NCBI GenBank assembly: GCA_016191235.1
Contig: JACPOZ010000030.1
Span: forward strand, 3,924-67,923
Length of the DNA stretch: 64,000 nt
Source of the DNA: Gammaproteobacteria bacterium
GTDB lineage: Bacteria; Pseudomonadota; Gammaproteobacteria; Ga0077554; Ga007554
Direction of reading: 5' to 3'
Shown: one piece after another, positions 9,498-60,794 of the stretch
How positions within the stretch are numbered: position 1 is the stretch's first letter
Layout of the letters: each line of letters starts with the position of its first letter
Program-made: the position numbers and the translations under genes
The notes under the pieces: generated by a model
What the model was told of the DNA's origin: nothing
Databases searched by the model: none
The model's input: the letters and a program-made list of their open reading frames with translations, nothing else

Positions 9498-11804
9498 ATG
9501 CCCAAAAATCTCCTTATCGTTGAATCGCCCGCCAAGGCCAAAACCTTGAAAAAATACCTGGGCAAGGACTTCGATATCCTCGCCTCCTACGGCCACGTGC
9601 GCGACCTGCTGCCCAAGGAGGGCGCCGTCGACACGGAACACAGCTTCGATATGAAGTACCAGACCATCGAAAGGAATGAAAAACACGTCGACGCCATCGT
9701 CAGCGCCATGAAAAAGGCCGACGTGCTCTATCTGGCGACCGATCCGGACCGTGAAGGCGAAGCCATCTCCTGGCATCTCCTGGAAATCCTCAAGGAAAAG
9801 AAACTCATCAAGGACAAACCCGTGCATCGCGTGGTGTTCTACGAGATCACCAAACGCGCGGTGAACGAGGCCGTGGCGAATCCGCGCGACATATCCATGG
9901 AGCTGGTCAACGCCCAGCAGGCGCGCCGCGCACTGGATTACCTGGTGGGCTTCAACCTCTCCCCGCTGCTGTGGAAGAAAATCCGCCGTGGCCTCTCTGC
10001 CGGGCGTGTGCAAAGCCCGGCATTGCGCATGATTGTCGAACGCGAGGAAGAGATTGAAAAATTCGTCACGCGCGAATACTGGACGATCCTGGCCAATCTC
10101 GCCAAAAAGGGTGATAACTTCAGCGCCAAACTTATCCAGTATCAAGGCGAAAAAATCAGCCAGTTCAGCGTTACCGATGGCGAACAGGCCAGCAAAATCG
10201 AGGAAGAGTTGCTGCGCGCCGCAGCGGGTACACTGGTGGTCGCCAAGGTAGACAAGAAGCAGCGCAAACGCAACCCTTCGCCCCCGTTCACCACCTCGAC
10301 GCTGCAACAGGAAGCATCGCGCAAACTGGGCTTTACCGCCCAGCGCACCATGCGCCTCGCCCAGCAACTTTACGAGGGTATCGACATCGGCGGTGGCGCG
10401 GTGGGCTTGATCAGCTACATGCGTACCGACTCGGTGAGCCTGGCGGCCGAGGCGCTGGATGATATCCGTAGCCTCATTGCCACCCGCTTCGGCAGCGACA
10501 ACGTGCCTGAGCAACCGCATTTTTACAAAACAAAATCCAAAAACGCCCAGGAAGCCCACGAGGCGATACGCCCCACTGCCGCAGAGCGCGTGCCGGAGTC
10601 GATCAAGGACAGCCTGACCGCCGACCAGTACAAGCTGTATGACCTGATCTGGAAACGCACCATCGCCTGCCAGATGATCCACGCCACCCTCGATACCGTA
10701 AGCGTCGACATGAGCGCAGGCGAAGGCAATCTGTTCCGCGCCAACGGCTCCACCGTGGTCCACCCCGGTTTCATGGCGGTGTACCAGGAGAGTGTAGACG
10801 ACAGCAAAGAAGGCGAGGATGAACGCCGCCTCCCCGTGCTGCTAGCCGGTGAAAAGATCGACCTGCTTGGCGTCCAGCCCGAACAACATTTCACCGAGCC
10901 ACCCCCGCGTTACGGCGAAGCCAGCCTGATCAAGGCGCTCGAAGAACACGGCATCGGTCGCCCCTCCACCTATGCGAGCATCATCTCCACGCTCCAGCAG
11001 CGCGAGTATGTGGAGCTGGACAAGCGGCGCTTCAAGCCCACCGACGTGGGGCGCATTGTCAACAAGTTCCTCACCGAATATTTCACGCGTTATGTGGATT
11101 ACGACTTCACCGCCCATCTCGAAGACGAACTCGACGCAGTGTCGCGCGGTGAAAAAGACTGGGTGCCGCTCCTGCGCGACTTCTGGACACCCTTCAAGGC
11201 CCAGGTCGACACTACTGAAGAGAACGTCAAGCGCCAGGATGTCACCCAGGAGGCGTTGGACGAAGCTTGCCCCAAATGCGGCAAACCGCTCTCGATCCGC
11301 CTCGGCAAACGTGGACGGTTCATCGGCTGCACCACGTACCCGGAGTGCGATTACACCCGCAATCTCAATGAAGAAGCGGGCGCTGTGACAGAACCCGAAG
11401 TCGTGGAAGGCCGCACCTGCCCCAAGTGTGAATCTCCGCTTATCTTCCGTCAAGGCCGCTACGGCAAGTTCATCGGCTGCAGCAATTACCCTGCCTGCAA
11501 ACACATCGAACCCCTGGAGAAACCCGCCGACACCGGCGTGGAATGCCCGCAATGTCACAAGGGCACCCTGCTCAAGCGCAAGTCGCGCTACGGCAAGATC
11601 TTCTACTCCTGCTCCACCTACCCGGATTGCAACTACGCCGTGTGGAACGAACCCCTCAACGAGTCCTGCCCAAAATGCAACTGGCCGGTGATGACCATCA
11701 AAACTACCAAGCGCCGCGGCACGGAAAAGGTCTGCCCGCAGAAAGAATGTGGCTATGCCGAGCCGTATGAGGCGGGGGAAACGGCGGAATCTGCGGAATC
11801 TTGA
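9498..11804 (+). CDS. topA: DNA topoisomerase I
   Basis: 768 aa with an N-terminal Toprim (LLIVESPAKAKTLKKYLG), catalytic Tyr region and three C-terminal Cys4 zinc ribbons (CPKCGKP, CPKCESP, CPQCHKG, CPKCNWP). Confidence 0.95.
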   Translation: MPKNLLIVESPAKAKTLKKYLGKDFDILASYGHVRDLLPKEGAVDTEHSFDMKYQTIERNEKHVDAIVSAMKKADVLYLATDPDREGEAISWHLLEILKEKKLIKDKPVHRVVFYEITKRAVNEAVANPRDISMELVNAQQARRALDYLVGFNLSPLLWKKIRRGLSAGRVQSPALRMIVEREEEIEKFVTREYWTILANLAKKGDNFSAKLIQYQGEKISQFSVTDGEQASKIEEELLRAAAGTLVVAKVDKKQRKRNPSPPFTTSTLQQEASRKLGFTAQRTMRLAQQLYEGIDIGGGAVGLISYMRTDSVSLAAEALDDIRSLIATRFGSDNVPEQPHFYKTKSKNAQEAHEAIRPTAAERVPESIKDSLTADQYKLYDLIWKRTIACQMIHATLDTVSVDMSAGEGNLFRANGSTVVHPGFMAVYQESVDDSKEGEDERRLPVLLAGEKIDLLGVQPEQHFTEPPPRYGEASLIKALEEHGIGRPSTYASIISTLQQREYVELDKRRFKPTDVGRIVNKFLTEYFTRYVDYDFTAHLEDELDAVSRGEKDWVPLLRDFWTPFKAQVDTTEENVKRQDVTQEALDEACPKCGKPLSIRLGKRGRFIGCTTYPECDYTRNLNEEAGAVTEPEVVEGRTCPKCESPLIFRQGRYGKFIGCSNYPACKHIEPLEKPADTGVECPQCHKGTLLKRKSRYGKIFYSCSTYPDCNYAVWNEPLNESCPKCNWPVMTIKTTKRRGTEKVCPQKECGYAEPYEAGETAESAES

Positions 11805-11919
11805 GCGTGTGACGATGCGTTAATCCTAAAAACTCAGTCATCCACGAAAGTCACAAAAAAACACGAAAATATTCAAATACATATCGCGATATTACTTGCC
11901 ACCCATCCGGTGAATTGCT

Positions 11920-12190
11920 AAAGCAATCCATGTTTTTGTCTACTCGCTGGTAGTCGATCCGGCCTGTCAAGGCCGCGGCATCGCCCGCGGCCTGCTCGAA
12001 GCCGCCGAACAGGCCGCCGCCGCAAAGGGCTGCATCACCATGCGCCTGGAGGTGCGCGCCGACAACGAGGCGGCCATACGGCTGTACTGCAAGGCCGGCT
12101 ACCGGACGGGCGAGTCGACAATTATTACGACGATGGAATGGCCGCGCAGCGGCTGCGCAAATCCATTGCCTTTGCCGACAATCCCCCGTA
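11920..12190 (+). pseudogene. GNAT (RimI-like) N-acetyltransferase remnant: 5'-truncated and frameshifted
   Basis: Only the C-terminal half of a GNAT fold remains (VYSLVVDPACQGRGIARGLLEAAEQAAAAKGCITMRLEVRADNEAAIRLYCKAGYR). The RimI-like tail (RVDNYYDDGMAAQ) continues in another frame near 12115. No N-terminal half or start codon is present. Confidence 0.55.
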
Positions 12191-12212
12191 ACCCTCACGG
12201 CCACTTTCGAGA

Positions 12213-12929
12213 TCAATAAGCCCAGTCCTCGTGTCTAACCGGCAGCCTATTCAGCTCATCCTTGTAGAACCGCCATTTCGGCATGAACTGATCCATCAAG
12301 GTTATGAAGCGCGCGTTATGCGTGCGCTCCAGCAAGTGAACCATCTCATGCACGACAATGTATTCGAGGCATTCGAGAGGCTTCTTTGTCAGTTCAGTAT
12401 TGAGGCGGATGCTTTTGGAGATTTTGCTACAGCTGCCCCACTTGGTTTTCATCCTTTGCACGAAGAATCTCTCCACCTTCACGCCCATGAGCGGTTCCCA
12501 TTTCGCGACCAACGGTAAGACTGCTTCTTTGAGCTTCTCTCGATACCAAGCATCCAGGACCTCTTGTTTCCGTTCATCACTGGTTTTCGGGCGAAGCTGA
12601 AGGATCATCCTGTTATGCTTTAGCTCGACTACTGGAGCCGCGTCCTTCTCGAGCACTTTGAGCAGGTAGCGCTTTCCCCAAACGTAATGGCTTTCGCGGT
12701 CGAGGTATTCGCGAGGTGTTTCCCGCTGCTGTTCACGCAACTTCTTTTGCTGGCTTTTGATCCAGCTGAGTTTGGTGATGGCAAAAATGCGAATAGTATC
12801 CAGGTCCATCCGCAATGGTGCGGAAATTCGCACCTTACCAGCCGGTGGATAGACGCTCAGGTGGATGTTCTTGATGTCCTTCTTCACCACGTCCACGGTA
12901 ATCTCACCCAGATTGATCTGCGTGACCAT
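12213..12929 (-). CDS. M48/DUF45 (YgjP-like) zinc metallopeptidase coupled to hsdR
   Basis: 238 aa with HEMVH (HExxH) in IVVHEMVHLLERTHNARF. Its start codon overlaps the hsdR stop by 1 nt. This family is recurrently encoded next to type I R subunits. Confidence 0.7.
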   Translation of the reverse strand: MVTQINLGEITVDVVKKDIKNIHLSVYPPAGKVRISAPLRMDLDTIRIFAITKLSWIKSQQKKLREQQRETPREYLDRESHYVWGKRYLLKVLEKDAAPVVELKHNRMILQLRPKTSDERKQEVLDAWYREKLKEAVLPLVAKWEPLMGVKVERFFVQRMKTKWGSCSKISKSIRLNTELTKKPLECLEYIVVHEMVHLLERTHNARFITLMDQFMPKWRFYKDELNRLPVRHEDWAY

Positions 12930-15900
12930 CAGTATTCCTTCTGCTGCTTGATGATAAGGAATATGCGCTCGACCTCGGCCATATCCTTCAGCACCTCATA
13001 TAGGGCGGTCTTGATGACATTCTCCTTGGCTTGAACGCCGCGCCAGCCGTCGGGCCGAGTGCGTTTGACGGCTTCCTCGATCCTGACAACCAGATTAAGC
13101 ACATCGTCTTTCGCGGTATCTCCATACGAAGCGGAAGGCTCAGCCACACAACTCACGCTGCCGGAAGCGGCCCCCTGCTTGAGATTGTTATAGAGGGCGC
13201 GGCGTCCCGGCGTATTCATCTGCTCTGGCGTATCTTCGGCCTGACCAGCATCCACTTTCTTCGCCAGCTCGGCAATCCGTTTCAGGTAGTCCTCATACTC
13301 GATAGCCTTCGCCTTGCGCGCGGCGATGATCTCATCCAGCAGCGCCGACATTTTCTCGTAGTAGGCCGGGTCGTTGAGGTGTTCCTTGATGATCTTGCTG
13401 CGGACGTTGTTCTCGATGGTTTCGGCAACGGCATCCTTGTTGCCCTTGAACCCATTCGGCAGGCTGTTGATCGCATTCGCGATGCCGGTTTTCACGATCA
13501 GCTCAAGCAACGGCATGTCGTCGAAGGGGGAAATCTTGCGCGGTTCGTCGGCTTCGATGTAGGTGTCGATGAGATGGCGCATGTCGGCCTCGTAGGCCTT
13601 GAGGTCGAGCGTCTCGCCACTGGCTTTGCGGATGATTTCGCGCACGTTCAGGTAGTGGTCGAGTTGCCGCTTGATGCGTGTGATGTCGGCAGGGCTATAG
13701 CCGGCCTTGTCCAGTTCGTCGGCGATGTTGGCGTAGGCGCGCACCAGCGCAACGGCCGCCTTGTAGAGCGCCGAACGCTGCGGTTCCCGCTCCTTCAGGT
13801 CGGAGGCAATCTCGGTGTTGCCGCAGAAGTAATGGATATGCTCGAGCTCACCCTTCGGCGGCGCCACCGGCTCGCACAGCAGTGCCAAGGTCTCCAGTGC
13901 GTTGTCGAGGCGTTCCTTGCCCTTCGTCAGACGATCCTGCAGCAACACTTCCGGATCAGGCCCACCGGCGCTGTGATCCAGTTCGGAGGTGTAGACCGCA
14001 ATGGCGTTCTCGACCTTCTTGAACAGGTCCTTGTAGTCCACGATGTAGCCGAAGTCCTTGTCCTCGCCGTCGAGACGGTTGACGCGGCAGATCGCCTGAA
14101 ACAGGCCGTGGTCCTGCATCGATTTGTCGATGTAAAGATAAGTGCAGGGCGGTGCGTCGAAGCCGGTGAGCAGCTTGTCCACCACGACCAGCAACTTCAT
14201 GTTCGCCGGTTCCTTGGTAAACAGGTCTTTGGCCCGCTCCTCGTAGATTTCCGTTTTGTTCATGCCCGGCCTGGCGTCGACATCCTTCAGCAGTTCGTTA
14301 TAGGTGTTGTAGATAAACTGCTTACCGGTCTCGGTGTTAGCGCCGGTTTCCTCCAGCGTCACGTCTCGGGCCAGCGGGTTGTAAGAGGTCACCACCGCAC
14401 ATCTGCCCTTGAATGGCGTCTTCTGGAACAGGGTGAAATACTTGCACGCCTCATAGATGCTCGATGCCACCAGGATAGCGTTGCCGCGCTCGCTGGACAG
14501 GCGCGGTTTGACACTGAAGTCGAACACAATGTCTGCCACCACCCGGTCCATGCGCGACTTGGAACTGAGCACGTGCTGCAACGTGCCCCACTGATTCTTT
14601 AGCTCGGCCTTCTGCCAATCGTTAAGCGCTTTGGTTTTGGCTTCGAACCAAGCGTCGATCTTGGCCTGCGATCCCAGGTGCTGATCGATGTCACGCGCCT
14701 CGTAAACGAGGTCGAGCACCACCCCGTCCTCCACTCCCTCACTGAACTTATAGGTATGAATGTAACCACCGAACACCTCCAGGCTGGTCTGTTTATCTTT
14801 CTTCAACAGCGGCGTGCCGGTAAAGCCGATGAATACCGCGTTGGGCATCATCGCCTTCATCACCCGATGCAGCTTGCCGCCTTGTGTACGGTGGCATTCG
14901 TCCACGAACACAAACACCTCACCCATGGTCTGGCTCGGCTGCGCTTCCAGCTCCCTGATAAAGGCATCGAAATCATCCACATCGCGGCGGCCAAACTTGT
15001 GCACCAGGGAGCAGAGCAGGCGCGGCCTGGCCTGACCGAGCTGGCTCATCAGCTCGCGCCCACTGCCGGTGCGTTTGATCGCCTCGCCCGCCTCGGTGAA
15101 GACGCGCTCGATCTGTTTGTCCAGTTCATCGCGGTCGGTGATGATGGCAACGCGGGCGTTGGGGTTGTTCTCCAGAATCCACTTCGCCAGCAGCACCATC
15201 ACAATGCTCTTACCGCTGCCCTGGGTGTGCCAGATGATGCCGCCCTTGCGCTGACGCACATGCTCCTGCGCTGCCTTGATGCCGAAATACTGATGCACAC
15301 GCGGCAGCTTCTTCACGCCACTATCGAAGAGCACGAAATCGTGCATCAGCTCGATCAACCGCTTCTTCTCGCACAGCTTGAGCAGATACTTGTCCAGCTT
15401 GAAGCGGCTGTTGTCCTGCTCATCCTCCTTCCACTTGAGGAAATACTTCTCCTGCGTACCGATGGTGCCATATTGCAGCCCCTCGGAATCATTACCAGCG
15501 AAGATGAACTGCACGGTGCTGAAGAACCACTCGTTGAACTCAGGCAGTTGATTGGACAAACTCTGGCGGATGCCATCACCAATGGAGGCACGGCTGTTCT
15601 TCAGCTCCAGCACGCCGATGGCGATGCCGTTCACATACAGCACGAGATCCGGCCGCCGCTCAAAATTGCCCTTGAGCGTCACCTCCTCGGCGATGGCGAA
15701 ATCATTTTTCTCCGGCTCATTCCAGTTGATGAGGCGGACACTCTCCGTCACCTTACCCACCTCAACTTTCACCGGCACGCCGTAGCGCAGCAGGTTGTAA
15801 ACAGAGTGATTGTTGCCGTAGAGCGTGCGGTTGTGGTTGTCCGCCTCGGTGCGCAGCTTGTGCAGCGCCACGCTGATCTGCGCCGGGGTGTAGCCGCTTT

Positions 15901-16051
15901 TTGTCAGCCACGCACTGAGCAGACTTTCCTCGACGTTGCTGTTGCCATCGCGGTCGGTCCAGTCGCCGAGGTAGCGATAACTTAGCTCATCGCGGAAAAG
16001 TGCGATGACTCGGTTCTGCGTCTCGCGTTCGGGTTGGCCGACATAATTCAT
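12929..16051 (-). CDS. hsdR: type I restriction enzyme R subunit (HsdR)
   Basis: 1040 aa with an N-terminal endonuclease region, SF2 helicase motifs (TGSGKS-like WHTQGSGKS, DEAH-like VFVDECHR) and a C-terminal helical domain. Confidence 0.9.
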   Translation of the reverse strand: MNYVGQPERETQNRVIALFRDELSYRYLGDWTDRDGNSNVEESLLSAWLTKSGYTPAQISVALHKLRTEADNHNRTLYGNNHSVYNLLRYGVPVKVEVGKVTESVRLINWNEPEKNDFAIAEEVTLKGNFERRPDLVLYVNGIAIGVLELKNSRASIGDGIRQSLSNQLPEFNEWFFSTVQFIFAGNDSEGLQYGTIGTQEKYFLKWKEDEQDNSRFKLDKYLLKLCEKKRLIELMHDFVLFDSGVKKLPRVHQYFGIKAAQEHVRQRKGGIIWHTQGSGKSIVMVLLAKWILENNPNARVAIITDRDELDKQIERVFTEAGEAIKRTGSGRELMSQLGQARPRLLCSLVHKFGRRDVDDFDAFIRELEAQPSQTMGEVFVFVDECHRTQGGKLHRVMKAMMPNAVFIGFTGTPLLKKDKQTSLEVFGGYIHTYKFSEGVEDGVVLDLVYEARDIDQHLGSQAKIDAWFEAKTKALNDWQKAELKNQWGTLQHVLSSKSRMDRVVADIVFDFSVKPRLSSERGNAILVASSIYEACKYFTLFQKTPFKGRCAVVTSYNPLARDVTLEETGANTETGKQFIYNTYNELLKDVDARPGMNKTEIYEERAKDLFTKEPANMKLLVVVDKLLTGFDAPPCTYLYIDKSMQDHGLFQAICRVNRLDGEDKDFGYIVDYKDLFKKVENAIAVYTSELDHSAGGPDPEVLLQDRLTKGKERLDNALETLALLCEPVAPPKGELEHIHYFCGNTEIASDLKEREPQRSALYKAAVALVRAYANIADELDKAGYSPADITRIKRQLDHYLNVREIIRKASGETLDLKAYEADMRHLIDTYIEADEPRKISPFDDMPLLELIVKTGIANAINSLPNGFKGNKDAVAETIENNVRSKIIKEHLNDPAYYEKMSALLDEIIAARKAKAIEYEDYLKRIAELAKKVDAGQAEDTPEQMNTPGRRALYNNLKQGAASGSVSCVAEPSASYGDTAKDDVLNLVVRIEEAVKRTRPDGWRGVQAKENVIKTALYEVLKDMAEVERIFLIIKQQKEY

Positions 16052-16099: not shown

Positions 16100-17260
16100 T
16101 CAGTTGTCCGCCCTATTCAGCGCTGAGGGGATAAATCCCTCATCTGACAGGGCGCGAACCACGCCACGTATCAGGTAGTTATTGCTGAAACCGATGGTGT
16201 ACTGGCGCGCCCCTTCATTGATGGGTTGCAACATTTTTCGTTCCACCAATTTTTTGATTTGATAAGTACGCTGGGCGGGCGACATCCCCGGCATGGCAGC
16301 GGCCAGATCGGCCGCCTTGGCCACGCCACTTTTGGCAGCGATGTGCAACACGGACTCTTCCATCGCCGTGATGAGCTCTCGTTCTTTGGCATATGAAAGT
16401 GCAGGGGCAAGAATTTTGTCGCCCAAGTAGCCAAAGTCAGTGAGCCGATCTACTTTGCGCAATGCGTCCAGGATGCCTCGCAATACATATATGCACCATG
16501 CCTCCATCCCATCTGCGGCGCCGGAGTCGGCGCGCGCCAACATGGCGTAATACTGATCGCGGTTATTGCAGAACACGGCTGTTGGATTCAACACCCTGCC
16601 GCCGGTCTTCACATTGAAGCCGTACTTGATCAACAGGGCGTAGGTCAGCAGCCGCACCACGCGGCCATTGCCGTTGCCAAACGGGTGTATCCAGCCAAAA
16701 CGGTGGTGCGCCAGCGCCACCTTGATGAGGTCATATTTTGGGGGATGCTTTTCGTTGATGAACGCCACCAGCTCCTGCATGTAGTGCGGCACCTGGATGA
16801 ATTCGGGCGGCAAGTGTTCCGCCTGCGCAATCTTTACGGACTTCTGCCGGTAAGCCCCCGGCGTGGCGTCCCCCTCGCGTTCCAGCCCTTTTACCGTGAT
16901 GGCGTGCAGCTCGCGGATGAAGTGCTCAGTTAGCCCGTCGCCGGGCTGAATGCGCTCCTCGATGTAGGCCATGGCGGCTTCGATATTTTCCATTTCACGA
17001 AGCTGGTCAGAGGACGCGGGGGCGCCCTCCAGCTTGCTTTCCACATAGTCGGCCAATGTGGTGTGATTCCCCTCGATACGGGCCGATCCCAGGCTTTCCA
17101 GCATGTGAAAGATACCCTTGAGCTGAAAAAAGACCGGCGCCGGGGTGGTGCCGTGCAATTGCAGGCGGCGCAGGTGTTCCAGCTCCGTCAAAACGTCCAC
17201 CAGCGGGGAGTCAAACGACGGATTGAGCAAGGTCAGATCATGATGGCTAAATACAGGCAT
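16100..17260 (-). CDS. Fic/DOC family protein
   Basis: 386 aa carrying the Fic motif region [12 protein letters not shown] (HxFx[D/E]GNGRxxR with Asn in place of Asp/Glu) and a C-terminal winged-helix-like tail. Located between hsdS and hsdR. Confidence 0.8.
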
Positions 17261-17447: not shown

Positions 17448-18701
17448 TCACACCAGCCGTATCCTCCCGGTGAGCAGCTCCTGCATCATGCCCTGCTTGA
17501 GGCTGCGGGCCTTGGCGAGCTTGGCTTCCAGTGCGGCGAGTTCGGCGTCCATGTCGGAAAGGAGGGTGGCGATGGCGGTTTGTTCGGCTTTCGCAGGTAG
17601 CGTCACTTCAAAAGCAGCGAGCTGTGTCTTACCGATTTCAAGGAACGTGCTGCCACCGCACAGACTGATAAATCCCTGTTTTTTCATAAGTAGCAGGTAG
17701 TAGAGAAACTCCACATCCACATGATCGAACGGAATGAAGTTCTTGAAGCCCTGATTCGTGGAAACTGAGACGGTATTGATCGCGCACTCACCAATGGTGG
17801 CTCGTGAGGTCATCACAATCGAGTTGGCCGGGATCATCTCGGCTGAACTGCTTTTCAGACCCAGTGACGAAATCTTGCGGCTAGTGTCGCTGATGTATTT
17901 GAAGCCGTTCAGCCCGGTAATATCGGTGGGCGTACACCAGGGAATGTCCCCATCCCAAAACTGCGGTTGTATCGTGCTTGGCGTTCCGCCGCTGCGAATG
18001 TTTGCCAACTCCCCCAACCGCTTCACCTCCCACTCCCCGCTGAAGCCCGGCAGGCGCTTCTTGCCGGTGAGCAGTTGCTGCATGGCGCCTTGTTTGAGGT
18101 GGCGTTTTTTGGCGATGAGTTGTGCCAGGGATTCGATGAGAGCATCCGCATCGCTCAACGCCTCGGCGATGGCTTCTTGTTCGGCTTTGGTGGGTGGGAG
18201 GACGAGGAATAGTCGTTTTAAGTTGTCTTGATTTATGTTCGTGTTGGCACTTACAGAACTTGCGCCAATCACCCGTCTCCTAAAGCCTTCCTCATAAAAG
18301 CAGTGTCTCTTAAAGCCGCGACTCAGAGTTCCACCATCTCGAAATCTGATCAAGAACCCTGAATACACGGTCTTTGGAAGATCTTCTTCGATGACCGCCG
18401 TTAGACCAACCCCGGAGGGTTTGACGGAGGACCTGATGAAAATCACATCACCTTTTCGGAGATCATATGTTTGTTGCTCTGCATGGTTTGTGTCCACAAG
18501 GCCGAGAGAATCGCTAGATGCAATGCTGGAAACGCCAAAAACATCCATGAGATTCACAAATGGTGAGCCATGGCCAAACGCTTCACTCCCCTTGTTGATA
18601 CCGTTCTTAAATTTGCCCACCTCACAAAGTTGGAAGATATTCCAATCCTCCGGAATCACCCCCACCTCGGTCTGCTTGTAGCCGGTCGGCATGTTATTCA
18701 T
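17448..18701 (-). CDS. hsdS: type I restriction-modification specificity subunit (HsdS), two target-recognition domains
   Basis: 417 aa. The conserved central spacer (LLTGKKRLPGFSGEWEVKRLGE) and C-terminal repeat (QGMMQELLTGRIRLV) flank two variable TRDs. Confidence 0.85.
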   Translation of the reverse strand: MNNMPTGYKQTEVGVIPEDWNIFQLCEVGKFKNGINKGSEAFGHGSPFVNLMDVFGVSSIASSDSLGLVDTNHAEQQTYDLRKGDVIFIRSSVKPSGVGLTAVIEEDLPKTVYSGFLIRFRDGGTLSRGFKRHCFYEEGFRRRVIGASSVSANTNINQDNLKRLFLVLPPTKAEQEAIAEALSDADALIESLAQLIAKKRHLKQGAMQQLLTGKKRLPGFSGEWEVKRLGELANIRSGGTPSTIQPQFWDGDIPWCTPTDITGLNGFKYISDTSRKISSLGLKSSSAEMIPANSIVMTSRATIGECAINTVSVSTNQGFKNFIPFDHVDVEFLYYLLLMKKQGFISLCGGSTFLEIGKTQLAAFEVTLPAKAEQTAIATLLSDMDAELAALEAKLAKARSLKQGMMQELLTGRIRLV

Positions 18702-19317
18702 CGTAGCCTCCCCGGTACGTCATGTTCCGTAGGGGCGACCGGCCGGTCGCCCCTACCCCGGTCGCCGGTACGTTATCCGGGTGCAATGTGTCCTCCGCCC
18801 AACGGCGTGGATTGTCGGCAACGTATTCGGCGATGCGGCGGTAATCGGCGGCGTCGCGGATGATGTGTTCGTAATAATTGCGTTGCCATACCGGCGCACC
18901 GGGGGATTGGCGGATTGCATTGATGCGTTTGGTGACAGCGGATTTGTAACCGGCCATCAATGCGCCGAGGGATTTCGATTGGGGGCCGGTGGGGGCGACT
19001 GGTGGGGCGACCCGCCGGTCGCCCGTACGGCCGGGCACGTCATTAGTAATGAGGACGATGGCGTGAAAATGATTAGGCATGATCACGTATTCGCCGAGTT
19101 CGATTTCTGCCCGGATTTCTGCTGACCGAAGCCATTCATCCGTCACAATCTGCCCGAATTCATTGGACTGCATCTCACCGTTCACGATTCCGCCGAACAG
19201 GCATTCGCGATCACAGGCGCAGATTGTCACGAAATAGCCGCCAGCCTGGGAGTAGTCATAATCTTTCAGACGGATCGAGCGGCGGTGGTGAATATCCCGG
19301 TTATAACGATTCATCAT
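18694..19317 (-). CDS. Y1 HuH transposase-like protein (IS200/RAYT-like, TnpA_REP family), translationally coupled between hsdM and hsdS
   Basis: 207 aa with N-terminal HRRSIRLKDYDYSQAGGYFVTICACDRECLFG, HuH motif MPNHFHAIVLI and a Tyr region VWQRNYYEHIIRD. It overlaps the hsdM stop by 4 nt and the hsdS start by 8 nt. Two GC-rich palindromes lie inside the CDS (18732-18753 and 19004-19025). Confidence 0.7.
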   Translation of the reverse strand: MMNRYNRDIHHRRSIRLKDYDYSQAGGYFVTICACDRECLFGGIVNGEMQSNEFGQIVTDEWLRSAEIRAEIELGEYVIMPNHFHAIVLITNDVPGRTGDRRVAPPVAPTGPQSKSLGALMAGYKSAVTKRINAIRQSPGAPVWQRNYYEHIIRDAADYRRIAEYVADNPRRWAEDTLHPDNVPATGVGATGRSPLRNMTYRGGYDE

Positions 19318-22233
19318 GCGAAACCCGTCTTCTTCAGGTGTTCGGCAGCCTTGCCCATTCCAAGCTCCAGCGCCTTCTGGGCATACCAGAGCCTGGTTTC
19401 CGGGTCGCTGAGTTTATCCAACAGGGTGAGATTGCTGCGCCAAGGCAATTGTGCAACGGTGCGTTGCACAATTGCCCGATCCGGCCAGGCATCTGCGAAT
19501 GTCCGCATGTACTTGAGGTTTCGCGGCGAGAATCCGGTCGTGCCGGGGAATGCGGTTTTCAAGTCATGGGAAATTACCTTCGCCCCCCACCCCTCCTGAT
19601 ACTGGCGTTCCAGAATGGATCGGCCGATGTCCCAATACATGAGTACCATGGCGGCATTGGCCGACAATACGGTTTTGATGCGCTCATGGGCTATGCGCTC
19701 TTTTATGTCGACTAAGAGTGTAGCGTAACCTTCAGGCATTGCGGCCAGGGTGTCGGGAACAGACATCAGCACGTCCGGTTTTGCCGTGCCACGGTTCTTG
19801 CGTCTGTCTGTCGGCTTGGCGACTTGATTCACCATCTGCGGCAGAGGGGTTTCGTAGCGTTCGGCCAACTCCTTCACGCGCTGGGTGAGCGCCTGGCTGA
19901 TGCGGTCCATCTCGCCGTGGATGGCGGCGGCGATGGCGGCCAGCCATTTATCTTCCACCACCAGCGTCTTGATCTCCGCCTCGGTGAGCGTGGGGTATTT
20001 GGCATAGGCCAGTGCGTCGAGCTTGGCCTCGGCGTCTTTCAGGGTTTTCTTGAGTTCAGCGTCCTGCGTGCTTAATTTCAGCCAAGCATTGAGGGCATGG
20101 GCCTCTTTCTTAGCCGCCTTGTCGCCTTTAATTTCTTTCAGGCGGGCGCTGACGTTGGCCTTGTTCACCTTGTCCAGCTCGGCAAACGCACCTTCTTCAC
20201 CGCCGTGTTCCTCTTCCAGTTCGGTCATCTGGGCGGCCACGCTTTCCAGCGCGGCCGCCTGCTGCGCGGTGAAGTAGCGATCCACGATGAGCGGTTTAGG
20301 TATAAGGTCGCAAGCCCAGCCTTTGTCCACTTCTTTGACTGTTTTGCCTTCCTTGTTTTTCTTGACTTCAATAACCCGGTAAGTCGTCGCCTTCCAGCCA
20401 TCTGAAGCGATCAGGTAACAATCGTCCTGCATGGTGGCAGCCCAATAGTCCATCAGGTGTTGATAGACGTCGTATTTATCAATCAGCGGCTGCGCCGTGT
20501 AGTGGGCGAGCAGGTCTTCAGCGAGCTCGTGGATGATATTTTTGGGGTGGCAACCTGCCTGCAAAGCCTTGAGCGTTTCACAACTGCGCTGTTGCCAGTC
20601 GGCAAACAGGGCATTCATGCTCTCGATGAAGCTGACGAACTCTGGATGCTGGTAGATGGTGGGCTTGATGGCTTGCTTGGAGACGGCCAGATCAAGGTAG
20701 CCGGGGCGCTTATCGGAAAGGTCGCGTAGCGAGACCGCGTCCCTCTCACCCGCTTGCGGAAGAGAGTTAGGAGAGAGGGGAACAGCTTTAAACAATGTCT
20801 TCCGAAGTCGTGGGCAAACATCCCAATACGGCTGCAAGGCATCCACGTCGGCTTTGGGGATGCCACCCTTCAGGTGCCCCTCGATGTCCTGAATATCTTC
20901 GACTTGCTGGCTGTCGATGTAGCGCGGGAGGTTGAGGTTGAATTCGTTCTTCTCGATCTCCTCGACGCTGACCATGCGCGAGTATTTGGGAATTTCCAGC
21001 CGCTTGTTGAAGGCATCGACGATCTGGTGAATGTCCATGTCGCGCAGGCGGTTCTTGGGGCCGTCCTTCATGTAGCCGCCGCTGGCGTCGATCATGAAGA
21101 TGCCCTTGCAGGTGTGGGCGTTTTCTTTGTCGATGACGATGATGCAGGCGGGAATGCCGGTGCCGTAGAACAGGTTGGCGGGCAGGCCGATAATGCCCTT
21201 GATGTAGCCTTTGCGGATGAGGTTCTTGCGGATGTCGGCCTCGGCATTGCCACGAAACAGAACGCCGTGCGGCAGAATGCAGGCGCCTTTGCCCGTGCTT
21301 TTCAGCGAGCGCACGATGTGCAGCAGGTAGGCGTAATCGCCTTGCTTGGCAGGTGGTGTGCCAAAATGTTGGAAGCGCTCGTGCGGATCGTTGAGCGGGT
21401 CGATGCCCGTGCTCCAGCGCTTGTCGCTGAAGGGCGGATTGGCAACGACGTAGTCGAAGGTTTTGAGCTGGCCATCCTCGCTTGTAAACAGCGGATTAGC
21501 CAGCGTATTGCCCTGCTTGATCAGCGCCGTTGGGTTGTTGTGCAGGATCATGTTCATGCGCGCCAGGCCAGAGGTGGCGGCGTCTTTCTCCTGCCCGTAA
21601 AGCGTGACCTTGGCTCTGGCTTCATCGCCCACTTTCAGCAGCAGCGAACCGGAACCGCAGGTCGGGTCATAAACAGTGGTATTGTTGCTGGTATGGGCAT
21701 CGTGAATGCCGATGATCTGCGCCATGATGCGGCTGACCTCGGCGGGTGTGTAGAACTGGCCCTTGCTCTTGCCACTCTCGGTAGCGAAGTGGCGCATCAG
21801 GTATTCATAAGCATCGTCCAGAATGTCATCGCCCTCCGCGCGGTTCTTTGAAAAGTCGAGCGCCTTGTTTTCAAAGATGGCGATCAGGTTGGTGAGCCGC
21901 TCTACAATTTCCGAGCCGCTGCCCAGCTTGCTGGGATCATTGAAGTCCGGCATGTCGGACAGCTTGTTGGCATTAGCCAGCGGCGCGATGATTTTCTTGT
22001 TGATCTGGTCACCGATGTCGGGCTTACCCTTTGAGCGCGACCATGTCCTTGAAGCTGGCACCTTCCGGGATGGTGATCGGTGCGAAAGGTACACCGGCGT
22101 ATTTGTCGCTGACGTACTTGATGAACAGCATGACCAGGACGTAGTCCTTGTATTGGCTGGCGTCCATGCCGCCGCGCAGCTCATCGCAACTGGACCAGAG
22201 GGAGAAATAGAGTTCGGATTTTTTCAGGGCCAT
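19314..22233 (-). CDS. hsdM: type I restriction-modification methyltransferase (HsdM) with an apparent +1 frameshift near 22028 (possible pseudogene or sequencing error)
   Basis: The N-terminal 69 aa (MALKKSELYFSLWSSCDELRGGMDASQYKDYVLVMLFIKYVSDKY...KDMVALKG) are in the frame 22024..22233. The rest of the N6-adenine methyltransferase (NPPF motif VVANPPFSDKRW, SAM-binding DPTCGSGSLL) continues in the 19314..22184 frame. The junction is at a GGG run (minus strand). Confidence 0.8.
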
Positions 22234-35441: not shown

Positions 35442-36671
35442 ATGGCAGTCATCGAAGGATTTCGGGTGCAGAACTATCGCGCACTGCGCGATGTGACGCT
35501 GGGCAAGCTCTCCAACCAGCAAGCTGGGAAACCATTGACGCCTTTCACCGTGGTGATTGGCAAGAACGGCGTAGGCAAGAGCACCTTGTTCGATGCATTC
35601 GGATTCGTGGCGGACTGTTTGTCCGCCGATGTAGAAAGCGCCTGCGACATGAAGCAACGCGGTGGCTTCGATCGCCTTCGCTCGATGGGCGTGAATGAGC
35701 CCATCCGGTTTGAAATCTATTACCGCGAAGGGCCCAATGAACGGCCGATCACCTACGAGTTGGCGATTGCGCTAGATTCCTCGGGGCGGCCCTTTGTCGA
35801 ATCCGAGGTGCTCAAGCAGCGTCGTAAGGGCGAGAAGCGTGGTCGGCCTTATGCGTTCCTGCGCCTGGACCACGGCAAGGGAACGGTCTGGGCAGGTGAA
35901 GAAGCCCTAGAAGCCGAAGGTGGAGAGGATCGTGCCCAGACGCCAGTAGAACTGACCGATACCCGGCAACTCGGCATCGCCACCTTGGGTACGCTCAAGG
36001 AACATCCGCGCATCAAGCTGTTTCGAGACTTCCTCAAAGGCTGGTATCTGTCCTACTTCTACCCGGATGCGGCGCGTAGTCTGCCGAGCGCCGGCCCACA
36101 GCGGCATTTGAACATCCACGGCGACAACATTGGCAACGTGGTGCAGTTCATGGAGCGTGAGCACAAAGCGCGATTCAAGGCCATCCTCGAACGCATTGCG
36201 GCGAAGATTCCGGGGATTGCCAGTATCGACACGCAGGTGACTGAGGACAAGCGCGTGTTACTGCGTTTCAACGACGGCGCTTTTGGTGACCCATTCTTCG
36301 CCCAGCAGATGTCAGATGGCACGCTAAAAGTTTTTGCTTACCTGCTGTTGTTGGAAGACCCGGACCCACCACCGTTCATTTGCATCGAAGAGCCAGAGAA
36401 CGGCCTTTATCACAAGCTGTTGGAGGCGTTGGCCCAGGAGTTCCGTTTACATGCCACCGGCAAAAAGAATGCCCCGCAGATTTTCGTGACCACGCACCAG
36501 CCGTACTTTGTTGATGCGCTGGCGCCCGAGGAAGTGTGGATACTGGAGAAAGGAACGGATGGCTATTCCACTGTGCGTCGCGTCTCTGAGCTTGAAGACG
36601 TGAAAAACCTCGTGGCTGAAGGTTTGCCTTTGGGTGGTCTTTGGTACAGCGATTATCTCGATGAGAGATGA
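35442..36671 (+). CDS. ABC-type AAA ATPase (AAA_21/AAA_15-like, OLD/PARIS AriA-like) without a nuclease domain
   Basis: Walker A VVIGKNGVGKST, Q/signature-like QMSDGTLKVF, Walker B/D-loop FICIEEPENGLY and H-loop VTTHQP. GAGGAG RBS upstream. 4-nt overlap with the next gene. Confidence 0.8.
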   Translation: MAVIEGFRVQNYRALRDVTLGKLSNQQAGKPLTPFTVVIGKNGVGKSTLFDAFGFVADCLSADVESACDMKQRGGFDRLRSMGVNEPIRFEIYYREGPNERPITYELAIALDSSGRPFVESEVLKQRRKGEKRGRPYAFLRLDHGKGTVWAGEEALEAEGGEDRAQTPVELTDTRQLGIATLGTLKEHPRIKLFRDFLKGWYLSYFYPDAARSLPSAGPQRHLNIHGDNIGNVVQFMEREHKARFKAILERIAAKIPGIASIDTQVTEDKRVLLRFNDGAFGDPFFAQQMSDGTLKVFAYLLLLEDPDPPPFICIEEPENGLYHKLLEALAQEFRLHATGKKNAPQIFVTTHQPYFVDALAPEEVWILEKGTDGYSTVRRVSELEDVKNLVAEGLPLGGLWYSDYLDER

Positions 36672-37327
36672 GTATGCACATTGAGATATTGGTGGAGGAC
36701 AGTTCGGGGGAGAAGTTGCTGCAAGTATTGCTGCCTCAGTTTCTGGGGCTACAAGGCGAGCCACATACCTGGCGTTTACATGCCTACAAGGGCATCGGCC
36801 GAATTCCACCTGGCTTGGTGACGAAGGCCGATCCCTCGAAGCGGATTTTGCTTGACCAGCTGCCAAAGCTATTACGTGGTTATGGCAATACGCCCGGAAT
36901 AGATGCCGTTGTGGTCGTGCTCGATACTGACAAACGCGACTGCGCTGCATTTTTGGCCGAGCTGAAAGCGGCCGCCGATGTCTGCAATCCGGTGCCTAAC
37001 ACTCTGTTCAGACTCGCTATCGAGGAAATGGAAGCCTGGTATTTCGGCGACCAAGATGCTTTGTTGGCCGCCTATCCACGAGCCAAGCGGGATGTGCTCG
37101 GAAAGTATGTTCAGGACAGCGCATGTGATACATGGGAACTCCTCGCCGACGCAGTGCATTCGGGCGGGTCGGCAGCGATCAAGAAAGCTGGCTGGCCATT
37201 GCCGGGACAGGTGAAGCATGAATGGGCCGAAAAGATTGGTCCGTTGATGGACCCGAACCGGAATATCTCTCCGAGTTTTGGAAAGCTGAGGGATGGATTG
37301 CGCTGGCTCGTCGCAGAGGCGACTTAA
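36668..37327 (+). CDS. DUF4276-like protein with Toprim-like signature (candidate nuclease partner of the upstream ATPase)
   Basis: 219 aa. N-terminal HIEILVEDSSGE (conserved Glu) and VVVVLDTDKRD (DxD) resemble a Toprim catalytic core. The DUF4276 family assignment is from memory. Confidence 0.6.
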   Translation: MSMHIEILVEDSSGEKLLQVLLPQFLGLQGEPHTWRLHAYKGIGRIPPGLVTKADPSKRILLDQLPKLLRGYGNTPGIDAVVVVLDTDKRDCAAFLAELKAAADVCNPVPNTLFRLAIEEMEAWYFGDQDALLAAYPRAKRDVLGKYVQDSACDTWELLADAVHSGGSAAIKKAGWPLPGQVKHEWAEKIGPLMDPNRNISPSFGKLRDGLRWLVAEAT

Positions 37328-44932: not shown

Positions 44933-46148
44933 CTCTGACCCGAATGGCACTTACTTAAGCTTCGTAGGGTGTCCATTTTTCCGAATGTTCTCCCTGGCGA
45001 CAGGTCGTGGCTTGGTGAGCAAAGGATAGGGTTTCGGTCGTCGCTTGATGGCGCGAGGTTCAATGCGCCCCAGGCGGTTCCCGACGCGCTGTTGGGCGAT
45101 CAGGGCAAACAGGTCTGCGAGGGTGTCTGCGTTACCGGCGCCCATTCCTCTTTGGTTCCACGCCAACCAGAGCTGAAGGGTGTGCTTGAAACTAAATTCG
45201 CGCGGTAGCCTATCGGTCAACAAAGCGGACTGAGCCATCAGGAGCCGAATCAGGTTATAGGCCAACAGATGCACCCAGATTTCCTTCTCAGCCATCGCTG
45301 GGGTTTTGCAACTCAGCATTTCCATGCCCAGCGTGGTTTTGATGTGGCGCAGATCCAGTTCTATGTGCCATCGGCTTCGATAGAGTATTTTCAGGGCCGC
45401 TTTGGGTGTTTGGTTCGGGTTCAATAGCGTCGTTACCAGGACCTTGCCGCCGGTATACAGCTCCCGTACCGTCAGCGTGTCCGGGGCGTGATCGTAGTCC
45501 GATTGCGCCATCCAGCCGGGCTTGGTCTGCGGCTTGGCGATCGTGATCAGATGATCACGTGATCCCAACCGCCGGCCACGCCGAAAGTCGGTGCGGCGCT
45601 TGCGTGCCCCCAGTTGTTCGAACACCGCATCCACACCGCGTGATTGCAAGTCGGACAGCAGAAAATAGGTCGCGTAATAGGCATCCCCCAGCAGGATGTC
45701 TCCGGCATTCAGAGTGTCGAGCACCGACCGCAGCAAAGATTGTTCATCGCCGCCCTTGCCTTGGTAGCGACCGATCGCCGCGTTGAGTACCGCACCGCTG
45801 CCGAGGCACACGATGCCTACCATGCGGCACAGCGGGAAACCCGCCCCCGGCTTTTGGCTGCGCGATCGACAACGTCTCCGTGGGCGGAAACAGCCTCTCC
45901 AGGTGATCGAGCCATTCGGCGCTGGTGAGAAGGTTGAAGAACGCGTAGGAATCGGTGTTGGCGGCGTGATGCCGAATACGGCGCTGTTGATGTGCGCGAG
46001 CGCTGGGAGTACGATGCATAAAGACTGGCTCCTTGTGATATCGGTGGTAGTTTGGCAACACCAACCTTATCACTTAAGCCAGCCTTTTTGTATATTAAAA
46101 TCAATGTGTTATTCGTTAAGTAAGCGCCATTCGGGTCAGACCCCTTTA
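44933..46148. mobile_element. degenerate IS4-family insertion sequence (internally deleted), about 26-bp terminal inverted repeats
   Basis: Inverted repeats GCTCTGACCCGAATGGCACTTACTTAA (44933-44959) and TTAAGTAAGCGCCATTCGGGTCAGACC (46122-46148). A transposase reading frame is disrupted inside. Confidence 0.7.
44951..46073 (-). pseudogene. IS4-family DDE transposase, internal deletion/frameshift
   Basis: The N-terminal 70 aa (MHRTPSARAHQQRRIRHHAANTDSYAFFNLLTSAEWLDHLERLFPPTETLS) are in one frame. The C-terminal 290 aa (GFPLCRMVGIV...LLGDAYY...YRSRWHIELDLRHIKTTLGMEML) are in another. About 100 codons between them appear to be missing. Confidence 0.7.
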
Positions 46149-47502: not shown

Positions 47503-47905
47503 GCACCGTCCACGAAAAACACAAAAGGCACATAAAATCTTCATAGCACAACCCGCTCGACTGTTGCTTTCGGATAGCAGCCTCAAGAAAACCACAACAA
47601 GCATGGCGTGCGCTATGCGCACGAATTACCGAAAAGACAACACAGTATGCGTCATTGGGCAATCCGCCATACAGGAAAGAGCGCAAGTAAAGTTCTGCAA
47701 GTGCCGTGGGCGTATGGATGCGGATGAGCGGTCACACATACCTCCCTTCTATATTTTTTCATTACAGCCACCATTTTTCGTGCGCACAGCGCACGCTACA
47801 CTTGCTGCTCCAAGAGCTGTTTTCGGCCGCTGCTCCCGGCGCGGCTCTACCTCCTCTTGCTAACCGTCCAAAAAAGCGGTCAACTGCCGTTTTTAAGATA
47901 ATATG
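47503..47905. repeat. composite repeat region carrying one terminus of repeat family A and one of family B
   Basis: 47505-47535 CCGTCCACGAAAAACACAAAAGGCACATAAAA matches the family-A terminus at 55320-55347 (reverse complement). 47878-47905 GTCAACTGCCGTTTTTAAGATAATATG matches the family-B terminus at 53952-53977. The internal segment is similar to 53870-53910. Confidence 0.4.
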
Positions 47906-55181: not shown

Positions 55182-55193
55182 TGAAAATGTGAT

Positions 55194-55347
55194 CCACGAA
55201 AAACACGAAAGCCACGAAAAAATGGGTTTGGCGTGCATCGGGAGATGGACGCTGGCTTTCTCGAACCTGTCTATTCTCGCCAACAACTGAACGGATAGTA
55301 TTGTAAAGATTTTTCGTGCCTTTCGTGTTTTTCGTGGACGGTGCATA
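55194..55347. repeat. MITE-like element (repeat family A) between rnhA and dnaQ
   Basis: 28-bp terminal inverted repeats CCACGAAAAACACGAAAGCCACGAAAAA and TTTTTCGTGCCTTTCGTGTTTTTCGTGG (1 mismatch), flanking about 98 bp. Solo termini occur at 11838-11866 and 47505-47535. Confidence 0.5.
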
Positions 55348-60386: not shown

Positions 60387-60794
60387 ATGAATGCCATTAT
60401 CCCGATCCCGCCAAGAAAGGCTGATATTCACGGTAAACAGGGCCGCGAGAGCCTGGCCAGGATGGTGGTGAAACTGTTTGAGCTTTGGGGACTCAACACC
60501 GGTGATCAAGCGGCCTTGCTCGGGCTTTCCAGCGACTCACGTTCAACCGTGGCACGTTATAAAAAGGGCAGCCCGCTCGCTGATAATGCCGACCTCATCG
60601 GGCGCGCCGGGCATCTGCTGGGTATACACAAATCCCTGCGCATTCTGTTTCCGCATAATCGCGATCTGGCTTACCGCTGGGTCGCCACCCCTAACCGCAG
60701 GTTTGATGGCCAAACCCCGCTTTCCATCATGACCAAGGGCTACGAAGGCCTGCTCGCCGTGCGTAGGTATCTTGATTTCGAGCGTGGCCGCTAG
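60387..60794 (+). CDS. Xre/MbcA/ParS-family antitoxin (DUF2384) of a RES-Xre toxin-antitoxin pair
   Basis: 135 aa. C-terminal DUF2384-like AYRWVATPNRRFDGQTPLSIMTKGYEGLLAVRRYLDFE. Confidence 0.75.
   Translation: MNAIIPIPPRKADIHGKQGRESLARMVVKLFELWGLNTGDQAALLGLSSDSRSTVARYKKGSPLADNADLIGRAGHLLGIHKSLRILFPHNRDLAYRWVATPNRRFDGQTPLSIMTKGYEGLLAVRRYLDFERGR

Follow-up and report, generated by a model that had tools for sequence, protein, structure and literature searches.

A probable one-base insertion pseudogene of hsdM in a type I restriction-modification island downstream of topA

The hsdM gene of a type I restriction-modification (R-M) island in an uncultured gammaproteobacterium, located in a window of 64 kb (the whole stretch of DNA that was analysed), is very probably a genuine pseudogene created by the insertion of one base in a short A3G3 run, and the island itself was probably acquired horizontally. 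The insertion places a TAA after hsdM codon 69, so that no full-length HsdM would be made. The pseudogene is real and is probably recent. It is a biologically ordinary case of defence-gene decay, a kind of event that is already known. The parts of the gene are as follows.

22024 to 22233, minus strand: 5' part of hsdM, 69 codons up to the premature TAA (22026-22024), with an HsdM_N match
22027 to 22032, minus strand: AAAGGG run, the frameshift site, with one extra base (A or G); the run is a base shorter in relatives (AAGGGN or AAAGGN)
19314 to 22031, minus strand: remainder of hsdM in the +1 frame, comprising N6_Mtase with CGSGS and NPPF, a long C-terminal region, an inserted fragment and the tail
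20712 to 20783, minus strand: in-frame insertion of 72 nt (VPLSPNSLPQAGERDAVSLRDLSD), private to this gene, at a place where homologs vary in length
20250 to 20258, minus strand: site of a private 18-nt in-frame deletion, with IREQEA missing after AQQA
19353 to 19814, minus strand: DUF1016/YhcG fragment of 154 codons, in frame in the hsdM tail (DUF1016_N, 4.6e-32)
19314 to 19352, minus strand: displaced true hsdM C-terminal tail, K-AAEHLKKTGFA-stop

On the minus strand the site reads CTC AAA GGG TAA, with AAA at 22032-22030, GGG at 22029-22027 and TAA at 22026-22024. The premature stop closes a 69-codon frame, ORF1 (22233-22024), which matches Pfam HsdM_N at 1.9e-11. The +1 frame is open from 22184 to 19314, and homology to HsdM restarts in it at KGKPDIG (22031). 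This second frame, ORF2, matches Pfam N6_Mtase at 1.8e-100, and its translation contains DPTCGSGS and ANPPFS, the AdoMet-binding and NPPF catalytic motifs. The hsdM products are 87-89% identical to annotated HsdM proteins. The initial annotation, which had placed a stop after codon 69 and the rest of the homology in the +1 frame, is confirmed in both sequence and coordinates. The segment ...ALKGKPDIGDQINKK... is encoded in one frame in 18 of 18 related loci, all relatives examined read ALKGKPDIG without interruption, and in the homolog alignment the frameshift falls in the invariant block L67 K68 G69 P71 I73 G74 D75. Comparison with the closest DNA relative by blastn gives exactly one gap across the first 1449 nt of hsdM, and thus no compensating second indel. 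An uninterrupted frame of the length typical of the family (~800 aa) is lacking. The same annotation spoke of one G too many. One extra base is indeed present, but it could equally be A or G, because the AAAGGGT of the window corresponds to AAGGGT in four related loci and to AAAGGT in two.

Beyond the frameshift, the rest of hsdM is rearranged. Removal of one base gives a frame of 972 aa, whereas 118 aligned proteins among the 120 best homologs have 790-835 aa. Since the repaired frame exceeds the homologs by ~170 aa, it does not represent the intact state of the gene. The uninterrupted frame of 970 aa that had been anticipated as the normal hsdM is incorrect in length, and it would carry the DUF1016 fragment in frame, the 72-nt insertion and the 18-nt deletion. 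The DUF1016 piece is absent from all 120 best HsdM homologs. It consists of 462 nt that replace ~3 codons before the conserved C-terminal tail, 12 codons short of the stop, and an AAG codon is situated on either side of it (19817-19815 and 19352-19350). Compared with DUF1016 homologs, it extends from ~codon 9 to ~codon 165 and covers the N-terminal domain only; it lacks the start codon along with the initial ~8 codons, and has a 9-nt deletion of its own (DRL). The homology stops at ...LELGMGK, where relatives go on with DMLVIQIENRL... A complete DUF1016/YhcG is a separate gene of ~340-350 aa with DUF1016_N followed by YhcG_C, and the fragment does not have this form. Another reading of the stretch after PLPQMVNQVA, as a degenerate tail of hsdM in which GACA is duplicated, was rejected, because the DUF1016 homologs of the relatives L075 and L081-L085 have this stretch natively in their N-terminal part. 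The DUF1016 gene of a sister genome (L160) was rejected as the donor, being only 47% identical. Downstream of the fragment, the hsdM tail ends in a TGA that overlaps the start codon of the following gene, the two together reading ATGA.

The junction between the DUF1016 fragment and the hsdM tail is also present in an independent JGI contig (L168). The upstream junction (19815/19814), the 72-nt insertion and the 18-nt deletion are represented by the contig of the metagenome-assembled genome alone, because no independent contig covers 19364-21074. No contig with both junctions was found, and a metagenome scan with the chimeric C-terminus gave DUF1016 homologs only. The IREQEA missing at the deletion site occurs in >90% of HsdM homologs. 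The 72-nt insertion carries a 10-nt imperfect inverted repeat, and no further copy of it exists in the window. The idea that the neighbouring RayT-like gene had mobilised this insertion as a REP element was unsupported, as the insertion folds like shuffled sequences (z = 0.05).

Recombination involving the AAG microhomology at both junctions may have brought the DUF1016 fragment into hsdM. The three private structural changes suggest that rearrangement of the locus preceded the frameshift or roughly coincided with it, although this order of events is tentative. Two of five conserved columns are changed in the displaced tail; in the hsdM body the figure is 4 of 393 (Fisher p = 0.002). At invariant HsdM columns there is no excess of private substitutions (three, against a homolog mean of 1.4 and maximum of 5), so the hsdM body bears no signature of long-term decay. 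The variation in hsdR and Fic is still mainly synonymous. Together, these observations make the inactivation look recent.

The other genes of the operon are listed here.

18694 to 19317, minus strand: RayT-like (REP-associated tyrosine transposase-like) gene, 207 aa, between hsdM and hsdS
17448 to 18701, minus strand: hsdS, intact, with two target-recognition domains (Methylase_S, 417 aa)
16100 to 17260, minus strand: Fic-family gene within the operon, intact
12929 to 16051, minus strand: hsdR, intact, 1040 aa, with GSGKS, DECH and D...ELK present
12213 to 12929, minus strand: YgjP-like M48 metallopeptidase gene, last in the island, intact

Intact hsdS and hsdR thus adjoin hsdM. HsdR matches TIGR00348 at 1.2e-153, is full length (aligned over 1-1040) and is ~83% identical to its relatives, which bears out the earlier proposal that the R-M system is inactivated while hsdR stays intact. 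The RayT-like protein scores 60.8 bits against NF047646 (1.3e-16), for which the cut-off is 80, and has no Pfam match; HFH and YYEH are seen in its translation, and JGI labels the identical protein RayT. The window was searched for cognate REP repeats, for Rfam families and for tRNAs, in each case with no match. The island occupies a variable spot downstream of topA. In a sister genome another type I system occupies this position, and other genomes have none there.

Type I enzymes need a core of two HsdM and one HsdS (M2S1) for methylation and for restriction. Because restriction requires this core, it too is abolished when HsdM is lost. Such a loss is not toxic and calls for no compensating damage to hsdR. 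The search for compensatory lesions in hsdR suggested in the initial annotation rests on type II logic. Judged from the truncated HsdM, the system is most likely unable to restrict or to modify, despite intact hsdS and hsdR. Truncated versions (196 aa) of the same HsdM family exist on other, unrelated contigs, suggesting that decay is recurrent in this family. In predictions of the defence repertoire or methylome of the host, this type I system is best scored as non-functional.

It is very unlikely that an internal start, such as GTG at 22061, yields an N-terminally truncated and active HsdM. Gene calling in other assemblies put the start of the reading frame at the equivalent of 22061, and the catalytic N6_Mtase domain is situated wholly downstream. 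However, the 67 residues that would be lost are where the invariant positions of the family are packed most densely, the GGAAG ahead of the GTG is followed by practically no spacer, and not one of the 120 best natural homologs begins there.

A sequencing or assembly error, in which the true genome would be one base shorter and hsdM a single open frame, is also very unlikely. Homopolymers are well known for artefactual single-base indels and the window belongs to a metagenome-assembled genome, but three other assemblies made with different pipelines match the window at 100% through the site, including the frameshift (CTCAAAGGGTAAGCC): Logan SRR12113392 (7687 nt), JGI 3300038435 (1067 nt) and ENA ERZ27314160 (979 nt). 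The agreement of the four assemblies is independence at the level of the assembler, and samples or reads may be common to them. The exact 69-aa product of ORF1 is called in the JGI, Logan and ENA assemblies and is listed only from those. The proteins of the source record include HsdR, Fic, HsdS, YgjP and TopA, and neither hsdM reading frame is among them; the 956-aa ORF2 is absent from the protein collection searched. No intact hsdM allele of >89% identity was found among 5.8 billion proteins. The other assemblies consist of short contigs, and the name of one includes k119, which suggests short-read assembly. On short-read platforms, consensus indels in 3-base runs are very rare. Moreover, the rest of the 64-kb window has no other gene split by one base: the only other broken gene, an IS4-family transposase (44951-46073) considered as a second 1-nt frameshift, has a large internal deletion instead. 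The larger structural changes in hsdM are also impossible as homopolymer errors. The identical insertion in four assemblies and the other scars in the gene indicate that the break is real, and they effectively refute the homopolymer error that had been raised for this site. The frameshift should be annotated as a real pseudogene, without 'correction'. More generally, look-ups of exact proteins across independent assemblies can tell real frameshifts from assembly errors without reads.

Programmed or leaky +1 frameshifting at GGG-UAA-G (GCGCUCAAAGGGUAAGCCCGAC), with a slip from GGG to GGU that restores some full-length HsdM, is exceedingly unlikely. The shift needed is +1, and a sense codon followed directly by a stop is the geometry of known +1 sites, such as CUU-UGA in prfB. 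The slip would give exactly the conserved ...LKGKPDIG... On the other hand, the shift site is not conserved, given a single frame in all 18 related loci and in each of the 120 best homolog proteins, and no stimulators were found: no SD-like motif occurs 3-6 nt upstream, and the downstream 97 nt fold no better than shuffled sequences (z = -0.32). UAAG is a stop context that terminates strongly in E. coli, re-pairing from GGG to GGU is imperfect, and the product would still be an aberrant 972-aa chimera. The programmed frameshift mentioned earlier as a rare option thus gains no support. There is a similarly slight chance that low-level +1 slippage at AAA-GGG-UAA-G produces small, regulated amounts of a 972-aa HsdM-DUF1016_N fusion whose frame is kept by selection. 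Frame is preserved at both junctions, as is the native frame of the DUF1016 fragment, for which the expectation by chance is ~1 in 9. Such a product, if it exists, would be a domain fusion of a new kind, in which a 972-aa HsdM contains the N-terminal domain of DUF1016.

There is next to no chance that slipped-strand mispairing in the run switches this hsdM reversibly ON and OFF: phase-variable hsdM genes are known, with repeats mostly in the 5' part of the gene, but the published criterion is at least nine identical bases, and G7 is the shortest switching tract cited (PMC7383803), while this run is A3 then G3 and therefore too short, all four assemblies have the same OFF length, and no ON allele was found in the databases searched.

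The preferred reading, a genuine one-base insertion pseudogene, can be set beside several known systems. The closest are type I systems with a long HsdM (~800 aa) and the order hsdM-(accessory)-hsdS-(accessory)-hsdR-ygjP. They have the same domains as the system here, namely HsdM_N and N6_Mtase, Methylase_S, and HSDR_N/SWI2_SNF2/T1R_D3, and four of them (L001, L002, L008 and L159) have the same gene order and a YgjP-like last gene, at 80-89% identity. Unlike these, the hsdM of the window is frameshifted after codon 69 and contains the DUF1016 fragment, the 72-nt insertion and the 18-nt deletion. It is followed by the RayT-like gene; in relatives this position belongs to hsdS or to a complete DUF1016 gene. 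DUF1016/YhcG genes (PDDEXK nuclease-like) are type I accessory genes that directly follow hsdM in relatives L075 and L081-L085, and the fragment is 81-83% identical to their N-terminal domain. In contrast to them, it has no YhcG_C nuclease domain and is situated in frame inside hsdM, with no separate gene. The frameshifting of prfB likewise involves a +1 shift at a sense codon before an in-frame stop, but the hsdM site is unconserved and lacks an SD-like element upstream, its stop context is strong, and its +1 re-pairing is imperfect. Phase-variable hsdM genes (Atack et al., 2020; PMC7383803) are likewise frameshifted in their 5' part, whereas the window has no long repeat tract (A3G3 against at least nine) and the length of the run does not vary among assemblies. 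The locus is a small example of the turnover and decay in defence islands downstream of topA. The nearest counterparts of the lesion itself are the known frameshifted or pseudogenised R-M methyltransferase genes, which likewise combine a single-base indel, an early stop, a mobile defence gene and intact neighbours. There is no essential difference from these genes, except that here the lesion comes from an environmental population and several assemblies rather than from a cultured isolate.

The minus-strand hsdM of the type I restriction-modification (R-M) island reads ...GCG CTC AAA GGG TAA GCC CGA C... in the window. The frameshift after codon 69 claimed by the initial annotation is borne out, as type I methyltransferase coding stops at the TAA and resumes in the +1 frame at KGKPDIG (22031). 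The features of the gene and the island are as follows.

22233-12213, minus strand: island, in the order hsdM, RayT-like gene, hsdS, Fic, hsdR, YgjP-like gene
22233-22024, minus strand: ORF1, ATG start, 69 codons, HsdM N-terminal domain (Pfam PF12161, 1.9e-11)
22032-22030 (AAA), 22029-22027 (GGG), 22026-22024 (TAA), minus strand: frameshift site of hsdM
22184-19314, minus strand: ORF2, open +1 frame, N6_Mtase (1.8e-100), CGSGS and NPPF motifs visible
20783-20712, minus strand: private in-frame 72-nt insertion, VPLSPNSLPQAGERDAVSLRDLSD, containing an imperfect inverted repeat of 10 nt
about 20254, minus strand: private in-frame 18-nt deletion, IREQEA lost
19814-19353, minus strand: in-frame DUF1016/YhcG gene fragment, 154 codons (Pfam DUF1016_N, 4.6e-32)
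19352-19314, minus strand: genuine hsdM tail, K-AAEHLKKTGFA-stop, resuming after the DUF1016 fragment
18694-19317, minus strand: RayT-like (REP-associated tyrosine transposase-like) gene, part of the type I operon, ATGA overlap with the hsdM stop

A scan of representative genomes gave 80 related loci, and ...MVALKGKPDIGDQINKK... is in a single frame in all 18 that were inspected at the DNA level. The protein alignment places the site in a block of invariant residues (L67 K68 G69 P71 I73 G74 D75). In a blastn comparison with the closest DNA relative, the first 1449 nt contain a single gap, and therefore no compensating indel lies nearby. The proposal of "one G too many" holds for the single extra base but not for its being G, since relatives read AAGGGT (four loci) or AAAGGT (two loci), besides other synonymous variants, where the window has AAAGGGT; from this comparison, the extra base in AAAGGG would be an A as likely as a G.

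The TopA, HsdR, Fic, HsdS, and YgjP-like proteins of the window exactly match NCBI proteins of a metagenome-assembled genome (MAG; MBI2779201 and MBI2779203 to MBI2779206). Neither hsdM frame is listed from the source MAG record, the 956-aa ORF2 product being absent from the protein collection, and the 69-aa ORF1 product is on record from JGI, Logan, and ENA only. The exact product is carried by the Logan assembly of SRR12113392 (7687 nt), JGI metagenome 3300038435 (1067 nt), and ENA analysis ERZ27314160 (979 nt, contig name starting k119), all three contigs being 100% identical to the window along their entire length, CTCAAAGGGTAAGCC included. A fourth contig, L168 from the JGI sample, matches window 19364-15126 at 99.67% identity with 14 SNPs and no indels, indicating that a slightly different strain variant is present in the JGI data set. 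Elsewhere in the 64-kb window, approximately fifty genes are of normal length and no other gene split by one base was found; apart from hsdM, only an IS4-family transposase gene is broken, and its lesion looks like a large internal deletion. Because the assemblies match and no second such gene was found, an assembler artefact is ruled out (the four assemblies are independent at the assembler level), and the homopolymer error that the initial annotation had allowed for would have to be a read-level one in a run of 3 bases, which is very unlikely. It is thus highly likely that hsdM carries a real, reproducible one-base insertion that makes a structurally rearranged gene a pseudogene. No intact hsdM allele of this lineage was found in the 5.8-billion-protein collection, where the best HsdM matches reach 87% (BLASTP) or 89% (alignment).

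The independent assemblies all break within hsdM: contigs L165, L166, and L167 end at window positions 21074, 21392, and 21293, L168 begins at 19364, and 19364-21074 is covered by none. A community with many hsdM homologs of 80-90% identity, or with many strain variants, is probably behind these breaks.

Deletion of one base yields a conceptual protein of 972 aa, rather than the 970 aa expected earlier, compared with 790-835 aa in 118 aligned homologs. Each of the 120 best homologs (from which the 118 were drawn) covers no more than its first 83%, and their C-termini read ...ERYETPLPxxxxxVAxLxxKVxAHLxKMGFxx-stop; judged by these homologs, the repaired gene is not a normal hsdM. A few homologs also have inserts at the site of the 72-nt insertion, and IREQEA is present in >90% of them. 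Private substitutions at invariant HsdM columns (three, vs. a homolog mean of 1.4 and maximum of 5) show no excess over the homologs.

The DUF1016 fragment is entered after ...PLPQMVNQVAK, is left again 12 codons ahead of the hsdM stop, and replaces approximately three hsdM codons (LSA in the related locus L002). Both junctions are in frame, with an AAG codon at each, and the tail's TGA shares bases with the ATG of the gene that follows, an arrangement also seen at hsdM stops in relatives. In loci L075 and L081-L085, full-length DUF1016 genes, 81-83% identical to the fragment, lie directly 3' of hsdM. Such homologs start MSNNKDIKPTDSRK... and carry on ...KALELGMGKDMLVIQIENRL..., so the fragment spans roughly codons 9 to 165 and lacks the YhcG_C nuclease domain; a 9-nt deletion (DRL, about 19575) is private to it. 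Junction 2 is also found in the independent contig L168, and junction 1 in the MAG contig only; de Bruijn-graph chimeras would not be expected to share 3-4 nt at their junctions. Of the highly conserved columns, 2/5 differ from the family in the displaced tail and 4/393 in the body (Fisher p = 0.002), which would fit a tail under relaxed constraint or one of different origin. The best explanation for the fragment, the only mildly unusual element of the locus, is that recombination left it as a scar. In the simplest reading, a single microhomology-mediated insertion would have entered an hsdM that already had the RayT-like gene next to it; alternatively, the fragment could have come in two steps via adjacent type I loci. 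A RayT-like homolog (33% identical) lies between hsdS and hsdR in the Chloroflexi locus L031 (13960-14484), and the window yielded no cognate REP repeats. Three copies of a short intergenic repeat family, TCCACGAAAAACACRAAAG..., lie at 11841-11869, 47509-47537, and 55193-55221 (69-100% identity).

On one side of the island is topA, and on the other an mlaF-like gene. In a sister genome (L160; TopA 96% identical), DNA identity with the window is ~89-90% up to 11792, and just past topA (L160 12392-20155) lies a different type I system with a 492-aa HsdM, a full DUF1016 (47% identical to the window fragment), HsdS, and HsdR. Other close relatives (L161-L164) lack R-M genes past topA, where pepA and 2-oxoacid dehydrogenase genes take their place. 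The region 3' of topA (window 11792-12212) is a variable defence-island spot. Decay of such type I systems is commonplace: hsdM is likewise frameshifted in L075 (10001-), hsdS is split in the related locus L001 (9333-10653; 269 + 195 aa), and three unrelated contigs carry frameshifted alleles from this HsdM family, whose 196-aa products end after GQFYTP (P0242/P0243/P0245).

Elsewhere in the window, the IS4-family (DDE_Tnp_1) remnant (44951-46073, minus strand) is split into two ORFs, by what looks like a large internal deletion; relative to typical IS4 transposases, ~100 aa would be missing between PPTETLS and GFPLCRMVG. An AAA_21/AAA_15 ATPase gene and a DUF4276 gene directly 3' of hisF (35442-37327, plus strand; weak MADS3 match, 1.8e-27, below cut-off) resemble a small defence-like module of two genes that has been inserted there. 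A 241-aa RES-domain protein and the 135-aa ORF before it (60387-61497, plus strand) probably form a toxin-antitoxin pair of the RES-Xre type.

The claim that hsdR is intact is confirmed: HsdR is full length, its residues 1-1040 align to relatives at about 83% identity, and Walker A, DECH, and D...ELK motifs are present; the suggested check for compensatory lesions found length and motifs kept. HsdS carries both target-recognition domains. The window and L168 differ by 14 changes, of which 9 are synonymous, 3 are non-synonymous, and 2 lie between genes; from the synonymous excess, Fic and hsdR variation still looks purified, and the frameshift is probably recent relative to this divergence. In type I enzymes, an HsdM2-HsdS1 core is required for DNA recognition, methylation, and HsdR recruitment. 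On this requirement, see also PMC2878639. Loss of HsdM should therefore give a non-restricting, non-modifying, non-toxic phenotype, and no compensatory hsdR lesion is expected. An inactivated R-M system with intact hsdR, one of the readings first offered, is preferred in view of the truncated HsdM, and the environmental gammaproteobacterial population most likely carries a type I system that is dead.

Programmed or leaky +1 ribosomal frameshifting at GGG-UAA, also offered initially, formally fits the geometry, with a stop directly after a sense codon, and a GGG to GGU slip would give back ...LKGKPDIG.... However, the site is kept in no relative examined, no Shine-Dalgarno-like element lies upstream, the downstream 97 nt are no more stably folded than shuffled sequences (z = -0.32), re-pairing in the +1 frame is imperfect, and the stop context is UAAG, an efficient terminator context. 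We therefore regard such recoding as highly improbable, and a functional HsdM-DUF1016 fusion made by a leaky shift as equally so; residual spontaneous slippage is possible but unsupported. Phase variation by run-length switching is slightly less probable still, because the runs are only 3 bases each (A3, G3) and equal in all assemblies, whereas screens for phase-variable hsd genes need at least nine identical bases and the shortest tract cited as switching is G7 (PMC7383803). The hsdM site resembles prfB-type +1 frameshifting in its sense codon and in-frame stop and differs from it in conservation and in the upstream Shine-Dalgarno-like element, and the one-base inactivation of hsdM is a kind of event that is already well known.
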